The position numbers were made by a program, and so were the translations under genes. Source: a virus. Taken from it: a DNA stretch of 64,000 nt. Location of the stretch: the IMG/VR virus record IMGVR_UViG_3300032053_000032, positions 1 to 64,000 of that record; one strand, 5' to 3'. This document shows positions 33,728 to 41,468 of the stretch, in pieces (positions within the stretch are counted from its first letter, which is position 1; each line of letters begins with the position of its first letter). The notes beneath the pieces were generated by a model. The model did no database searches, was not told the origin of the DNA, and was given only the letters and a program-made list of their open reading frames with translations.

Positions 33728-35371
33728 ATGGCCCGTTGCCGCGTCAGAAACCTTACCGGACTGCCCATCACGCTCCCCGCGCCGTACGGCAGGCTCCTTC
33801 ACGCTGGTCAAGCTGTAGTTGTGGCTGATTCGCGTGATATCGTCGTCGCAAAGCTAGGTGGTAACGCGGTCGTCTCCGGGCTGCTCGATATCCTCGACGT
33901 GGAAGACGGGCAGGTCTTCGACCTTCCGTCTGGTGGTACGGCTGGATTCTCATCAGCCTCTGTTGGAAAGTCGATCGACATCTATCTGAGCCCTCTCGGT
34001 TCGGCTCTTGGCAGCGGCACCAAGCTTTCCCCGATGTCCTCACCGGATGACGTGCTCGCGGTGTTTCCGGTATTCAGCTTCGGCAGCGGTCGGACGAAGG
34101 TCCATTATGCCGACTCGTTGGGCAGATGGGACGACGACCTGAACTACGACGGCCTTGGTGGACAAGCGACGTACACCGCCTCGGCGCTCTGGGTATGGTC
34201 GAACGAAAGCCAGCGCACGGCGTACATGCATCGCGGCCCGCAGATGGTGCGTGCCACTGTCGCTGGTGGGAACAACTTTATCGATGCTGCCAACGTCAAA
34301 ACGCTCTCGACGCCTGCCGTCTCGGCGAAGACCAGGGTCACCCTGGGCACGAGTCCTGGATGGACGGTGAACGACCTTCAGAGGAAGTTCGCTCGGTTCG
34401 TCAACACCGTATCTGGAAAGCTCGTGATCTGGGAGATGCCAATCACGACGAATACGGCGAATTCATTCGACATGGACAACACGTCCATCAACGCTGGACT
34501 CACGGCAGATCTTGCCAACATGACGATCGAGATCGTTGTGCCTGGCGCGATTATCGCTGCTCCTGTTGGAGGTCAGATCACCCTCAAAGGCCTCGACTGT
34601 TCTCTGCACAGTTCGATCTTGGCAGAGGAGGGATGCGCCCTGGAGCGTCTCGCCTTCAATTCCTCCACGCAGGTCATGGACTCGGGGTGCGCAGTGGACC
34701 GCTGCACGTTCAACGCAAGCGGGCGCTTCGTCGGCTTCAACTGGGGCTTCGTCAACTGTATCTTCGGTGCTCGTCAGGCGTTTCTTGCTGGTGCAACTGG
34801 TCAAGGTGTAGCCATCGCAAGACCAGACTCCACCACCAGCCCGGAAGTGCAGACCACGACCAGTTGTGTGGAGATCATCTCCTACGGGGCGGTATTTCTC
34901 GGTGGAAGTGCGTCTACCGCTGGCAAGGGCTCTCCGTTCGCCTATAAGGCGATGAGAAATTTCAGCATCTACAACGCCAATTCTAGCGTGATCGTCGCGT
35001 TCGCTAATTCGATCTGGCAGACCGACAACGTCCACACGTATACGACCAGCGTGATCGCGATCCAGGGGTCTGGGAACACCGCCCAAACAGGGTTCCAGAC
35101 GAACGACAATGGGATGATATTCTTCGACTCGCCAGCTACCTTCCCGAACGAGATCAGCATCACGCCTTCCATCTCTGGATGGGCGTTCGTCACGCCGGAA
35201 CTCGCCGCGACCCCGAACGGGATCGCTGCCGGCGTGGGGGTAGGGAACTTCGAGGAAGTGGCTGGCTACAACGGCTTCTACACCCACCGCCAGAGCGGAA
35301 CGGCCACGGCACCTCTCGGCGGATCTGGCATCGTCGCCACCCACCAGCGTGGCTTCGGGCTGGGAAACTAG
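33728..35371 (+). CDS. receptor-binding protein / tailspike paralog 1
   Basis: 547 aa; DIYLSPLGS...GTKLSP start typical of beta-helix proteins; lower GC; paralog of 36485-38173. Confidence 0.65.
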   Translation: MARCRVRNLTGLPITLPAPYGRLLHAGQAVVVADSRDIVVAKLGGNAVVSGLLDILDVEDGQVFDLPSGGTAGFSSASVGKSIDIYLSPLGSALGSGTKLSPMSSPDDVLAVFPVFSFGSGRTKVHYADSLGRWDDDLNYDGLGGQATYTASALWVWSNESQRTAYMHRGPQMVRATVAGGNNFIDAANVKTLSTPAVSAKTRVTLGTSPGWTVNDLQRKFARFVNTVSGKLVIWEMPITTNTANSFDMDNTSINAGLTADLANMTIEIVVPGAIIAAPVGGQITLKGLDCSLHSSILAEEGCALERLAFNSSTQVMDSGCAVDRCTFNASGRFVGFNWGFVNCIFGARQAFLAGATGQGVAIARPDSTTSPEVQTTTSCVEIISYGAVFLGGSASTAGKGSPFAYKAMRNFSIYNANSSVIVAFANSIWQTDNVHTYTTSVIAIQGSGNTAQTGFQTNDNGMIFFDSPATFPNEISITPSISGWAFVTPELAATPNGIAAGVGVGNFEEVAGYNGFYTHRQSGTATAPLGGSGIVATHQRGFGLGN

Positions 35372-35379
35372 GAGATCAG

Positions 35380-35682
35380 ATGGAACTGCGAGAGTACAAC
35401 ACGTTCGATGTGGAGAAGTTCAAGCGCGAGTCGACAGACCTGCCACCGGCTATCGCGGCGCTGATCCCTCTGTACGAGCGGCACATTCAGATCCTGCCAG
35501 AGCATCACCGAGCGGTCGTGGAGGTCAGGCCGGGCTTCTGGGACGTCTCATGCGACGATTGCTGCATGGTCATCGAGCACTTCGCGCCATACGTGAAGGC
35601 GTCCGAGCCGGAGATCACGATCATCATGCCAGCGCCAGAAGCCTCGCACGAAGCAGAGACGCCGGAACCAGAGGTAGCCTAG
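35380..35682 (+). CDS. hypothetical protein
   Basis: AGGAG RBS, ATG 35380; 100 aa. Confidence 0.6.
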   Translation: MELREYNTFDVEKFKRESTDLPPAIAALIPLYERHIQILPEHHRAVVEVRPGFWDVSCDDCCMVIEHFAPYVKASEPEITIIMPAPEASHEAETPEPEVA

Positions 35683-38191: not shown

Positions 38192-38662
38192 ATGGGTATC
38201 CTCACCGTGAGCACCGTCTGTGGCACCATCCTGGTCATTCTCGGCCTCATCTACAAGTTCCTCGCCCCGCTCGTCAAGAGCCCGGTCATCGCCGGGATCC
38301 TGTCACGCGCGAAGGATGAGGTTTTCGCCGCTGTTCACGAGGTGGATGCTGGGTACGTTGACGCGATCAAGCTCGCTTCCGCCGACGGCACCCTGACTGC
38401 GGCCGAGAAGGCTGTTGCAAAGGACAAGGCCATCGCCATCGCCAAGAGCAACATCGGCATGAAGGGCCTCGCGACGCTGAGCAGGATCGCCGGGATCGAG
38501 TCGGTTGAGAAGTGGATCGCCTCGTGGATCGAGCGCGGCGTGAGCACAAAGCGCCTCACCGAGCAGCACGCGGACGCAGCAACGCTGGCTGCTTCTGCTG
38601 TCGCCGGGGGTGACGCGACCGTCCCTTTCGTCAAGCCCGCGCCGAACAACTCGCCGCGGTAG
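38192..38662 (+). CDS. holin-like protein (single N-terminal TM, LL-H-like)
   Basis: N-terminal TM helix; DGTLTAAEKAVAKDKA...WIERGV pattern; upstream of endolysin; leaderless start after TGcTACCCT-N7. Confidence 0.6.
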   Translation: MGILTVSTVCGTILVILGLIYKFLAPLVKSPVIAGILSRAKDEVFAAVHEVDAGYVDAIKLASADGTLTAAEKAVAKDKAIAIAKSNIGMKGLATLSRIAGIESVEKWIASWIERGVSTKRLTEQHADAATLAASAVAGGDATVPFVKPAPNNSPR

Positions 38663-38919
38663 TTGCGGCGCAGTCGGTTGTCGCGGGGCAGCGGCTCGAC
38701 CACGTCGACTCGCTTCGGGTAGGGGAAGGCCATCTCGACCTGAGCGCCTTCGCTCACGGGGACGGGATCGGTGGCACCTCGGGCGTCTCGCTCGACTATG
38801 AGCACCGCGCGACGGCTGGGCTGTCCATGTTCGGCACCGGGTGGGCCGGTGCAAGCTACGGTGCGGGCGGGTTTGCCCCGGCGTACGGCGCGCAGGTCGG
38901 TCTTCGTCTCAAATTCTAG
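38614..38919 (+). CDS. start-less -1 frame extension: helix plus four beta-strands ending in GLRLKF (outer-membrane anchor-like)
   Basis: Open from just after TGA 38611-38613 to TAG 38917-38919; exactly fills the holin-endolysin gap; not in the ORF track. Confidence 0.65.
   Translation, partial: RDRPFRQARAEQLAAVVAAQSVVAGQRLDHVDSLRVGEGHLDLSAFAHGDGIGGTSGVSLDYEHRATAGLSMFGTGWAGASYGAGGFAPAYGAQVGLRLKF
38623..38688 (+). other. programmed -1 ribosomal frameshift signal
   Basis: In-frame C CCT TTC heptamer (38623-38629), 6-nt spacer, then GC-rich stem CCCGCG...CGCGGG with inner CGCCGC/GCGGCG. Confidence 0.7.
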
Positions 38920-38928
38920 GAGGACGTC

Positions 38929-39807
38929 ATGGGCTTGATGATCGGCGGGCACGAAGAGGAGATCCAGGGCGTCGTCATCAACTCGTGGATCAAGCACCCG
39001 GAGCTTCGCCTGGACGGCGGGGACCGACGCCCGCGCGACCCAGCGCGAGCCCACGCCTGGCCCGTCCGCAGCATCGTCATCCACACCGTTTACGGCGACG
39101 AGCCGATCGTGCTCCTCAAGGGCAAGGGACCAGACGGTGGCGAGCCCGCCGCGTGGATCAAAGACCAGCGCGGCGACAAGACCCACGCTGGCGAGCACAT
39201 GCTAGTCGGGTTTGACGGCGCGGTCGCCTGCACCTGTGACCTCCTAGGCGAGGCGAGCTACCACGCGGAGAGCATCAACGAGCTGTCGATCGGCATCGAG
39301 ATCTGCACCCAGCGCGCACGGGACGTGACAACCGGCCAACCAGTCTTCTACATGTGGCAGGCTTCGCTCGACGCCACCCTGGCAATCTGCGACTACCTGA
39401 CCGCGCTCCCGCGGGCATCCGCCGGGCACGGGCTGATCTCCGTCGCGCGCCAATACCACTCCCCGTTCCGTAACGGGTCACCCGTGCCGAGGTTCGCAGC
39501 GGGCGGATCCGACTGGACGGGCATCCTCGGACACCGCGACCAGACCTCCAAGAGAGGAGCTGGTGACCCCGGCCACCACGTCTTCGACGTGCTAGCTGCG
39601 CGCGGCTACGAGGCGTTCGACGTCATGGATGATGCTGACAAGACGGTGTGGAAGGTCCGCCAGGCGTACCTGAACGGGAAGTACGGCTCCCACCTCACCG
39701 TCGACGGCGTGCCGGGACCTGGGACGCGGGCGGTGCTGGAGCAGGCGGGGTACCGCGGGGGGCTGTGGCAGTTCCCTCCCAGCGCGACCCCGCTCCCAAC
39801 GGCATGA
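38929..39807 (+). CDS. endolysin, N-acetylmuramoyl-L-alanine amidase (Amidase_2) with C-terminal peptidoglycan-binding domain
   Basis: IVIHT, HMLVGFDG, SYHA, NELSIGIE, ILGHRD and DPG motifs; LTVDGVPGPGTR. Confidence 0.85.
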   Translation: MGLMIGGHEEEIQGVVINSWIKHPELRLDGGDRRPRDPARAHAWPVRSIVIHTVYGDEPIVLLKGKGPDGGEPAAWIKDQRGDKTHAGEHMLVGFDGAVACTCDLLGEASYHAESINELSIGIEICTQRARDVTTGQPVFYMWQASLDATLAICDYLTALPRASAGHGLISVARQYHSPFRNGSPVPRFAAGGSDWTGILGHRDQTSKRGAGDPGHHVFDVLAARGYEAFDVMDDADKTVWKVRQAYLNGKYGSHLTVDGVPGPGTRAVLEQAGYRGGLWQFPPSATPLPTA

Positions 39808-40438
39808 TCTCCAGTCTGTAGATCGCGCGCGCGGCTCCCTTCGTTTCGACCATCTCCTCCGATACCCTTCCCGTCACGATCAGCTCCTGAAGCGCACGCC
39901 GTACGGTGCGGTAAGCCATTGAGGTTTGGGTGCAAAGCTGATCGCTCGTCGCGCTGTCATCTCGCAGAGCTTGGATCACAGCGGTCTGCGACGCGGTTGC
40001 TCCATCGAGAAACAGACAGCGATCACAAGCGCGCGCGTCCTCGTGCTTCTTCTCGCCGCACGGGCAACACCGCAGCTTGCTAAGCCGACTCGTCTCTCGC
40101 ATCCTGGCGGCCTTTACCGGATCACGCCGACGCTCTCGCTGTCTTGCGTTGTCCTCTTCACGAAACTTCGGATCTGAACGTCGACGCTTACCAGCCGCGC
40201 GCTGAAGCTCCTGCCATCGCTCGCGGTTCGAGTCGATCCAGCGGCGTCCGTTTGCCTTGTGGCGCTCCTTGTTGGCCTCGTACCAAGCGCGCCCTTGCGC
40301 CTTTAGGCAGTCCAAGCAGGTGTGTCGCAGGCGAATCTTGCCGCGCTGGAAGTATTCCAGGAAGAAATCCGACGTGAACGGCTTGGTTTTCTTGCAGAGG
40401 TTGCAGCGGAGTTTCTCGGGAGGAACGCGCACACGCAC
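39695..40438 (-). CDS. Zn-finger / winged-HTH DNA-binding protein
   Basis: CNLC...CLDC, basic helix, CPC...CDRC, then TSDQLCTQTSMAYRTVRRALQELIVTGRV; overlaps endolysin 3' end convergently. Confidence 0.55.
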   Translation of the reverse strand: MRVRVPPEKLRCNLCKKTKPFTSDFFLEYFQRGKIRLRHTCLDCLKAQGRAWYEANKERHKANGRRWIDSNRERWQELQRAAGKRRRSDPKFREEDNARQRERRRDPVKAARMRETSRLSKLRCCPCGEKKHEDARACDRCLFLDGATASQTAVIQALRDDSATSDQLCTQTSMAYRTVRRALQELIVTGRVSEEMVETKGAARAIYRLEIMPLGAGSRWEGTATAPRGTPPAPAPPASQVPARRRR

Positions 40439-40443
40439 ACGCG

Positions 40444-41028
40444 CTACTCCGGTTCCTTCGGGCAGAACGTATCGAGGAGCCAGCGGCCCACGAGGTCGAG
40501 GACACTGTGGGCGATTGGATACTTTTCGTCACCCGTGAACCCGGACGGCTCGAACTTCATCGCCTTCCACTTCGAGGCGATAGCATAGCACGGCGTTCCA
40601 TACTGCCAGGCGACGGAGGCAGCCATCGCAGCGCCATCGAACGCGCCGGAAGCGAGCGACCCGGACTTGCCGACTCTGATGAAGATCTCCCCTGGGCGCC
40701 CGTCTTCGTAAAGCCCGATGGTCACGTAGATCTTGACCACCCCGCTCGGGTTGTCTTCCGACGGGGCAGCTTGAATCCGAAACGCGCGCGTCGGTCCCTT
40801 ACGCGTGTCGCTCAGGCGCTGGCGCTGGACCACGCGCGGGGGTGGATCTGCTGGTGCGCCAGCAGGAAGCGTTGAGGTGAACGCGTTGGGATCGTGCGAC
40901 ACCAACTCCTGCTTGAGGTCAAACGCGATCTGCTCGCGTGGGGGCAGCACGAGCACGGTAGGTCCGTGACGACCGCTCTTGGATTCGAGAGGCTTCAGCT
41001 TTTGTGGCTTCTTGGGTTTGTTGCTCAC
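40444..41028 (-). CDS. stand-alone TSCPD-domain protein (class II RNR C-terminal-like)
   Basis: YVTIGLYEDGRPGEIFI...KSGS...QYG...KFEPSG...SVLDLVGRWL; GTG start overlapping the upstream stop. Confidence 0.8.
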   Translation of the reverse strand: MSNKPKKPQKLKPLESKSGRHGPTVLVLPPREQIAFDLKQELVSHDPNAFTSTLPAGAPADPPPRVVQRQRLSDTRKGPTRAFRIQAAPSEDNPSGVVKIYVTIGLYEDGRPGEIFIRVGKSGSLASGAFDGAAMAASVAWQYGTPCYAIASKWKAMKFEPSGFTGDEKYPIAHSVLDLVGRWLLDTFCPKEPE

Positions 41029-41468
41029 TTGACCTCGATGATGGACCACCCACCGCCGTCCTTCTTGGCGACGCGGGTGACCTGGAAAAATCGGTACGGG
41101 TGCAGCTCGGCAGCGACCTTGATCTTGACCCGGCCGGTTGGCTCCATGAAGCCCTTTACCTCGTGGAACTCTATCGAGCCATCGAGAAGAAGCACCCTGA
41201 AGTCCGGAACGTAGTACGTCATGTCCGCCAGGCGCAACTTTTCGGGCTCGAAGTCCCAGCGCACGACGTCCGGCGGGCTGCTATCAGACCACGGTGAGAT
41301 GCGCCGGAGTTCCAGCACACGCGCGTACGCGGCCTCCATCGCGTTCATCGCTCCTGGCTTGCGTCCCTTAGCGTGCCAGCGCCCCCTCACGGTCTTCGCC
41401 GTGGTCACGACGACTCCGGGCACCGGGTTGGGCAGGACGACCTTGGCGGGCTTCCTGGCGCGTGCCAT
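41025..41468 (-). CDS. PD-(D/E)XK endonuclease (DUF1064-like, possible resolvase)
   Basis: MNAMEAAY...YVPDF...EFHEVKG. Confidence 0.75.
   Translation of the reverse strand: MARARKPAKVVLPNPVPGVVVTTAKTVRGRWHAKGRKPGAMNAMEAAYARVLELRRISPWSDSSPPDVVRWDFEPEKLRLADMTYYVPDFRVLLLDGSIEFHEVKGFMEPTGRVKIKVAAELHPYRFFQVTRVAKKDGGGWSIIEVK

Follow-up and report, generated by a model that had tools for sequence, protein, structure and literature searches.

A probable −1 frameshift that would extend a holin-like phage protein with a beta-strand module

How could a reading frame of 96 codons that lacks an upstream start codon be translated when it lies between a holin-like gene and an endolysin gene, and what might its product contribute to lysis? 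The question is raised by a locus in IMGVR_UViG_3300032053_000032, an IMG/VR virus record of 85,027 bp that has direct terminal repeats and is rated complete; the stretch that we analysed, here called the window, comprises its first 64 kb (64,000 nucleotides, nt). The record is present in sediment metagenome runs, the GC content of the window is ~63%, and ARAGORN found no tRNA genes in it. The locus consists of a gene for a holin-like protein of 156 amino acids (aa), a second frame that overlaps the 3′ end of this gene in the −1 register and encodes what we call the module, and an Amidase_2 endolysin gene. The reading that we prefer, with a probability of roughly 0.7, is that ribosomal frameshifting produces a long isoform of a lysis-cassette holin that carries the module, a unit of beta-strands. 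The slip itself is what we infer from the observed sequence features and their conservation.

The overlap at the end of the holin-like gene

The holin-like open reading frame (ORF) reads ...GTC CCT TTC GTC... at 38621-38632, so that a slippery heptamer is in register with the zero frame and 11 sense codons separate it from the TAG (Table 1). In the −1 frame no stop codon occurs from 38614 to 38916; the TAG that follows (38917-38919) falls in the Shine–Dalgarno sequence of the endolysin gene (AGGAGG, 38918-38923), the ATG of which is at 38929. There is no ATG, GTG or TTG in the −1 frame between 38614 and 38826; the only such codon in the open frame is the ATG at 38827, which would leave 30 aa, and the first near-cognate codon, CTG at 38740, lies 3′ of the conserved LDHVD...GEG block. 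A slip at the heptamer would join 146 residues of the holin-like protein to 96 residues read from the −1 frame, with the junction ...TVPF-RQARAEQ.

Downstream of the heptamer, after a spacer of ~6 nt, the sequence can form a nested hairpin with a folding energy of −34.7 kcal/mol for 38630-38700. The hairpin is within the most stable 2% of the 60-nt windows over the surrounding 5 kb, and compared with dinucleotide shuffles it gives a z of −1.6, which is modest for this composition. Codon-usage log-odds, trained on the long genes of the phage, begin to favour the −1 frame over the holin frame at ~38620-38660 and stay positive to 38919. In-frame canonical heptamers are rare in these long genes (4 per 9,066 codons), and from this rate the chance of finding one in the 16-codon overlap is ~0.7%.

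An earlier reading of this region, made from its letters and a list of its ORFs (hereafter the sequence-only reading), had described the in-frame heptamer and its distance from the stop codon, a strong nested GC stem about six nt further on, a −1 frame that opens 10 nt upstream of the slip site and has no start codon until late, and the end of this frame within the ribosome-binding site of the endolysin gene. Each of these elements was confirmed when the ORFs were read and the RNA was folded, the stem with the modest z given above.

In the mechanism that we propose, most ribosomes would complete the 156-aa protein, which is predicted to have its N-terminus outside and a cytoplasmic three-helix domain. 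Some ribosomes would slip back one base on C_CCU_UUC, aided by the hairpin ~6 nt downstream, and the slip would exchange the last 10 residues of the protein for the 96 of the −1 frame, giving a form of 242 aa. The added part is predicted to comprise a helix and four long amphipathic beta-strands and to end in G-x-x-hydrophobic-x-F. Other lineages would produce the module by a frameshift, by starting at an overlapping codon of its own, or probably by both routes. The module would reach the outer membrane only after the holin had opened the inner membrane.

Three other candidates in this part of the window were tried and rejected. The first was a minus-strand gene under 38614-38735: its codon-aligned antisense score is similar only to ~38730 and it has no homologs; the plus-strand −1 frame alone has them. 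The second was a deletion of one T in the heptamer, with GTG 38610 as the module start, which would ruin the conserved zero-frame tail. The third concerned another heptamer, G_GGA_AAC (at 35362, in the stretch 35362-35382), which lies three codons before the stop of a 547-aa gene (33728-35371) and is followed by a gene in the −1 frame; a second slip site at 35362 was discarded because that gene has its own AGGAG and ATG 35380, which makes the heptamer look coincidental.

Table 1. Features of the locus, with positions in the window
Feature	Position	Strand	Basis
Holin-like gene, zero frame, 156 aa	38192..38662	+	ORF; stop TAG 38660-38662
TGA closing the −1 frame upstream, 10 nt before the slip site	38611..38613	+	sequence
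Slippery heptamer C_CCT_TTC, zero-frame X_XXY_YYZ register	38623..38629	+	sequence
Nested GC-rich hairpin, core pairs 38635-38689, likely frameshift stimulator	38634..38696	+	folding
−1 frame coding region, 96-aa appended module	38629..38919	+	47 cluster-representative homologs; AlphaFold2 model
Amidase_2 endolysin	38929..39807	+	Amidase_2 E 1.5e-5; phrog_1493 endolysin E 1.7e-7
Endonuclease VII/HNH-like protein with winged-helix domain	39695-40438	−	
TSCPD-domain protein	40444-41049	−	

Conservation of the junction in related loci

Scans of IMG/VR and of JGI metagenomes, based on DNA patterns and on alignments, yielded 55 loci with a relative of the holin-like protein, and hidden Markov models of the two families were applied to all three forward frames of these loci. 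The module lies directly behind the holin-like gene in 31 loci, which form 20 clusters at 70% module identity, and it is in the −1 frame in every one of them. Canonical heptamers (counted when in the zero frame, with A or T as Y, in a final stretch of up to 20 codons) were present in 11 of the 20 clusters, compared with 1 in 2,349 upstream codons of the same genes, which represents a 65-fold enrichment at the junction (Fisher's exact p = 5e-9); the same end windows contained one off-register heptamer. Six heptamer types were observed: CCCTTTC (the window and L042), CCCTTTG (seven clusters or clades), CCCAAAA (L024), CCCAAAG (L054), AAAAAAG (L047) and GGGAAAG (L070). Related sequences were A_AAC_CCT, found in L065 and L076 (both start-less) and in L028, and C_CCC_CCG, found in L051. 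A zero-frame C_CCT (CCA in two loci), which reads as CCC in the −1 frame, stands at the junction of nearly all loci. In 13 of the 20 clusters no ATG, GTG or TTG that could start the module was found upstream of its conserved domain. In most of the loci with a heptamer, the 60 nt beginning 4 nt past it are within the most stable 0-4% of the windows of the locus, and the stems are unrelated in sequence.

Of the frameshift motifs measured in Escherichia coli, H_HH.U_UU.Y and V_VV.A_AA.R rank with the most efficient; C_CC.U_UU.C is reported to give −1 frameshifting at a high level, C_CC.U_UU.G, C_CC.C_CC.G, A_AA.A_AA.G and G_GG.A_AA.G are listed as shift-prone, and a pseudoknot placed downstream acts on the tetramer C_CC.U (PMC4066793). 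Each of the six heptamer types observed here is thus shift-prone in that bacterium.

Since the module is always in the −1 frame, the heptamers are interchangeable and most clusters lack a module start, programmed −1 frameshifting is well supported, and we consider it highly probable that it yields the 242-aa long form beside the 156-aa protein. A slip site that is conserved in position, interchangeable heptamers, a stimulator and a start-less downstream frame together make up the classical signature of phage G/GT frameshifting. The frameshift proposed in the sequence-only reading, together with its expectation that homologs would share the heptamer and the −1 ORF, is thus strongly supported by the related loci. 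A module encoded as a separate gene with its own start, which that reading had held to count against the proposal, does exist, in a minority of lineages only (L008/L028, L033, L039, L068, L054, L070 and the L056 clade), several of which have retained a heptamer as well.

The minority loci bring up the question of whether the module might be translated on its own everywhere, by reinitiation, coupling or a non-canonical start, with no frameshift at all. The GTGA or TTGA overlaps that place an ATG, GTG or TTG at or just past the holin stop in those loci would agree with this, as would the many database homologs that begin with MR[DE] or MT, as expected of an ATGA/GTGA start overlapping an upstream TGA. 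We regard it as very improbable, given the start-less −1 frame of the window, where CTG 38740 is already past the conserved block, and given 13 start-less clusters in a set with 65-fold enrichment of slippery heptamers. A sizeable share of the homologs begins inside the conserved block (e.g. MPVGRGKLEL...), which is what a gene caller would yield where there is no real start.

Loci L008 and L028 read CCC TTC GTG A where the window reads CCC TTT CGT C, a comparison which shows, at the level of these sequences, that a start/stop overlap and a slip site may easily interconvert. As one base and one substitution separate the overlap in L008 from the arrangement in the window, the module gene could also be taken for a decaying remnant that has lost its start, or the junction for an assembly indel. 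This is scarcely credible. Logan contigs from three runs (X1 at depth 24, X2 and X3) span the junction with 0 differences and 0 gaps, and their identity makes an assembly indel, an artefact that the sequence-only reading had considered, unlikely; the three sediment samples may come from a single campaign, and X1 is possibly the source sample. Moreover, the invariant positions of the module are intact over 96 codons, its codon-usage score in that frame is positive, and the zero-frame tail that follows the heptamer in the window (PAPNNSPR*) resembles the tails of the closest homologs (PAPAGSSAR* and SSQR*). The start-less design also recurs in many lineages.

The module and the protein that would carry it

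When the −1 translation (101 aa, P0001) was compared exhaustively by phmmer with 1.84 billion cluster representatives, 47 proteins were obtained at E<=1e-3, the lowest E being 1.3e-14. Their lengths are 46-115 aa, and each aligns through its own C-terminus, with the consensus LDxVxxLxVGxGxLDL...DYxHR...SxFGxGxAG...AGLRxRF, in which G39 and R98 never vary, G96 hardly varies, and nearly every member ends in F or W. The window module, which ends in ...GLRLKF, keeps all the invariant and near-invariant positions over its 96 codons. Free-standing members have 2-20 residues before the LDRVD motif. Neither the window peptide nor 46 family members matched a Pfam or PHROG model, a PDB sequence search with the family profile gave nothing significant, and no longer proteins (203-2000 aa) with the module turned up, although the latter is weak evidence. 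Judged from these alignments, the −1 ORF is a member of a real, undescribed family of small proteins. In two loci (L026:1060-1368 and L027:2902-3207) the module has an insertion of ~30 residues (…ATTAFDRREETGREPGRRVRRTALPKAGRN…) between strands 1 and 2.

With an alignment of 46 sequences, AlphaFold2 (AF2) modelled the module at a mean predicted local distance difference test (pLDDT) score of 96.2 and a predicted template modelling score of 0.74. The model has a helix at residues 3-32 and strands at 39-49, 54-67, 70-82 and 88-99, each of 11-14 residues, in which hydrophobic residues alternate with polar or small ones. The six C-terminal residues conform to G-x-x-hydrophobic-x-aromatic, as do the beta-signals of bacteria and mitochondria. 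A Foldseek search of PDB gave nothing below E 1e-3; the anchors of Hia, AtaA and YadA were among the top rows, and cystatin-like affimers and capping protein were listed too. In a VIA-align comparison with 48,161 representatives, the membrane hairpins of the membrane attack complex (MAC), RCD-1, gasdermins and pleurotolysin scored Z 7.3 to 6.5, followed by CdiB at 6.0, Hia at 5.7 (root-mean-square deviation 2.9 over 59 residues), AtaA at 5.3 and YadA at 4.9, with similar values for the barrels of outer-membrane proteins. As far as the model goes, these matches indicate only a sheet of four transmembrane-length antiparallel strands. From the model we incline towards a module that is one subunit of an oligomeric membrane beta-barrel; this assembly, and a role for it in lysis, are what we infer.

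The sequence-only reading had called the module YadA-anchor-like. The layout stands, namely a helix and four strands (pLDDT 96) and a G-x-x-hydrophobic-x-F/W end. Family membership does not: PF03895 (YadA_anchor) matched neither the window peptide, nor the 46 family members, nor the six-frame translation of the genome, even at E 10, and the similarity in fold to Hia, AtaA and YadA (Z 4.9-5.7) is middling and no better than that to the pore hairpins of gasdermin and MACPF proteins.

The AF2 model of the holin-like protein (pLDDT 86.9) has a transmembrane (TM) helix at residues 6-28, a soluble domain of three long helices and a disordered tail (142-156), inside which the slip site lies (residues 145-146). 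Foldseek found no meaningful match to this model. Close homologs are few, namely P0003 and P0004 (~60% identity) and P0005 (41%). The window protein itself matched no library model. Among 19 family members, 14 matched phrog_13712 'holin' (best 6e-12), 7 matched phrog_36209 'holin', and one matched Pfam Phage_holin_6_1 (PF09682) weakly (0.0033). Over 19 homologs, the 12 residues before the TM helix contain 3 K+R and 25 D+E, and the 15 residues after it contain 55 K+R and 18 D+E. A segment resembling a cleavable signal peptide precedes the TM helix in P0005, L036 and L039, and the homolog L033:2174-2962 has an apparent lipoprotein signal (…LAASGC) and ~100 extra residues before the helix. This charge bias and the four signal-bearing homologs lead to a predicted N-out/C-in topology for the family, in which the conserved domain and the fused module would be cytoplasmic. 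A truncated relative of 122 aa, with no module, is encoded at L001:3881-4249 in a prophage-like region of a metagenome-assembled genome of Hydrogenedentes. This distant copy was the sole match among 185,579 species-representative genomes; 135 genomes of the Hydrogenedentes phylum gave one weak match, which is probably spurious.

This topology has consequences for the function of the module. The sequence-only reading had proposed a new spanin and had itself cautioned that basic residues after the TM helix suggest a C-in arrangement. The caution was borne out by the charge bias (3 versus 55 K+R) and the four homologs; the simple spanin model is unsupported, as the fused domain is predicted to be cytoplasmic and has neither a lipobox nor an export signal. 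Indeed, no Sec signal peptide and no Cys lipobox were found in the module, and the free-standing members (MRD.../MT...) have no hydrophobic leader. A predicted start in the cytoplasm argues against a simple bridge from the inner to the outer membrane, and both a soluble regulatory domain and insertion into the inner membrane from inside fit the topology better than a role at the outer membrane.

The first of these alternatives accepts the frameshift and takes the module for a soluble domain in the cytoplasm that would serve oligomerisation or timing, comparable to an antiholin-like regulator, with no membrane barrel. Two isoforms of one holin gene set lysis timing in lambda (S105/S107), which provides a precedent. 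The N-out/C-in prediction, the missing signal peptide, the confident AF2 model of the monomer alone and the soluble proteins among the Foldseek rows (cystatin-like affimers and capping protein) would all suit such a domain, and a helix packed on a four-stranded sheet is common in soluble proteins. Nevertheless, we think it unlikely, because the C-terminal aromatic residue is nearly universal and the G-x-x-hydrophobic-x-aromatic ending strongly conserved, the strands have 11-14 residues in which hydrophobic positions alternate with polar or small ones, and the best VIA-align matches are membrane-inserted sheets. Furthermore, with 2-20 residues before LDRVD, the helix of the free-standing members is too short to cover the hydrophobic face of the sheet.

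The second alternative also accepts the frameshift and would have the module insert into the inner membrane from the cytoplasm, as a multi-subunit, gasdermin-like beta-barrel pore that adds to the holin lesion or enlarges it. It is topologically the simplest, since both ends of the four-strand unit would be cytoplasmic and no export would be needed, and the top VIA-align matches are pore hairpins (MAC, gasdermins, RCD-1 and pleurotolysin, Z 6.5-7.3). However, the gap in Z to the trimeric autotransporter anchors and outer-membrane proteins is under 2, with all values below 8, and the C-terminal motif resembles the beta-signal of the barrel assembly machinery (BAM), suggesting an outer-membrane destination. 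We know of no phage holin of this kind, and we consider such a pore distinctly improbable.

Several points weigh against our preferred reading, in which a frameshift-made holin isoform carries the beta module. The hairpin is only moderately more stable than shuffled sequence (z −1.6 to −1.9). The start-less loci L043 and L052 carry only a C_CCT tetramer. L033, L039 and L068 lack a heptamer and start the module at a codon of its own, which indicates that the module can work free and that fusion is not obligatory. Every structural match of the module is below Z 8. In addition, the diderm envelope of the host is presumed, and the module, having no signal peptide, starts in the cytoplasm, so that access to the outer membrane through holin lesions is speculative.

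Lysis context, significance and comparison with known systems

In the window and in L008 an Amidase_2 endolysin gene lies downstream of the pair; in L025 such a gene lies upstream of it. In L026 and L027 the pair lies between gp25-like and baseplate J genes and not beside an endolysin gene. Genes for SLT or DUF5675 proteins precede module-less relatives, and an SLT gene is adjacent in L035. Directly past the endolysin gene of the window there are two minus-strand genes (39695-41049; Table 1).

A crude lipobox filter found no lipoprotein candidates in the 85-kb genome, in agreement with the sequence-only reading, which had recognised no lipobox o-spanin. In four module-less loci (L038:1420-2008, L079:1664-2233, L050:1979-2697 and L077:910-1671), one or two small lipoprotein genes with a lipobox and Cys stand right after the holin-like gene; these are possible o-spanin-like partners. 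A Cys-rich lipoprotein gene also follows the module in L058, L060 and L067, which belong to one module-bearing clade, and no clean complementarity emerged by which lipoprotein genes would replace the module in module-less loci.

Searches for close relatives among described phages yielded little. A tblastn search of 50,697 GenBank phage records with the holin-like protein and the module gave no match, and blastn of a phage collection and scans of viral contigs with A1, P0001, the endolysin and P0006 returned nothing or very little. The sole match of the endolysin in deposited phages was to an uncultured 485-kb phage, at 36% identity. No account of a holin frameshift or of a beta-barrel lysis protein emerged from searches of the literature.

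With regard to function, we suggest only tentatively that, once the inner membrane has been opened by the holin, the module damages the outer membrane or engages it, in place of the spanins that this phage appears to lack. A more specific version, which we hold to be doubtful, is a mode of outer-membrane lysis that needs no lipid anchor: a four-strand barrel subunit with a BAM-type beta-signal, made in the cytoplasm either free or fused to the holin, would leave through the holin lesion, assemble in the outer membrane and breach it or tie it to the inner membrane.

If a conserved frameshift inside a holin gene is real, it would be a new class of recoding and a new route to two lysis-protein isoforms in a fixed ratio. 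The module itself represents an uncharacterised, confidently folding family that resembles one blade of a membrane beta-barrel. Should it act on the outer membrane, it would explain how some phages without spanins finish lysis, and it would offer a very small, self-contained beta-signal protein for studies of barrel assembly. Gene callers truncate or miss the module, many database members begin inside the conserved domain, and the clipping or skipping accounts for the absence of the fused product from protein databases.

Among phages, tail assembly chaperones and some capsid genes provide the best-known cases of programmed frameshifting. The chaperone frameshifts (lambda G/GT at G_GGA_AAG; P2 E/E+E′) share with the locus described here a conserved −1 slip near the 3′ end of a late gene, a short major and an extended minor product, and the use of different heptamers at one position by relatives. 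No contiguous fused ORF was found here in what was a weak search, and this would fit a need for both forms, as in the chaperones. They differ in that the chaperone is soluble and encoded between the tube and tape-measure genes, whereas here the protein is holin-like and membrane-anchored, its gene lies beside that of the endolysin, and the extension consists of beta-strands. As in the signals of dnaX and of the IS3/IS911 type (Sharma et al. 2014, PMC4066793), an X_XXY_YYZ heptamer is combined with a stable structure 5-9 nt downstream; C_CC.U_UU.C, C_CC.A_AA.R, A_AA.A_AA.G and G_GG.A_AA.G are shift-prone in E. coli (PMC4066793).

With the anchors of trimeric autotransporters (YadA, Hia, AtaA; PF03895) the module has in common one helix, four strands of transmembrane length and a C-terminal aromatic beta-signal. 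Unlike them, it has no profile match, signal peptide or passenger domain, its predicted start is cytoplasmic, and the structural scores are Z 4.9-5.7. The likeness to spanins (lambda Rz/Rz1; unimolecular T1 gp11; Kongari et al. 2018, PMC6139136) lies in two overlapping lysis-cassette frames at the 3′ end of a gene whose product is a membrane protein with an N-terminal anchor, and in a phage whose outer-membrane step is unaccounted for, with no lipoprotein spanin recognisable by the crude lipobox filter. In contrast, Rz1 has its own start and a lipobox, where the module has no lipobox and no export signal, and an i-spanin is N-in/C-out with a periplasmic coiled coil, where the holin-like protein is predicted to be N-out/C-in.

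Like holins, the protein is small, has one TM helix and is encoded beside an endolysin; as a putative holin it would be expected to form timed lethal holes in the inner membrane. A parallel in output is lambda S105/S107, in which a translational device also makes two isoforms of one holin gene in a fixed ratio. There the device is a pair of start codons, and two residues at the N-terminus distinguish the isoforms, whereas here a frameshift would add a folded C-terminal module of 96 aa.

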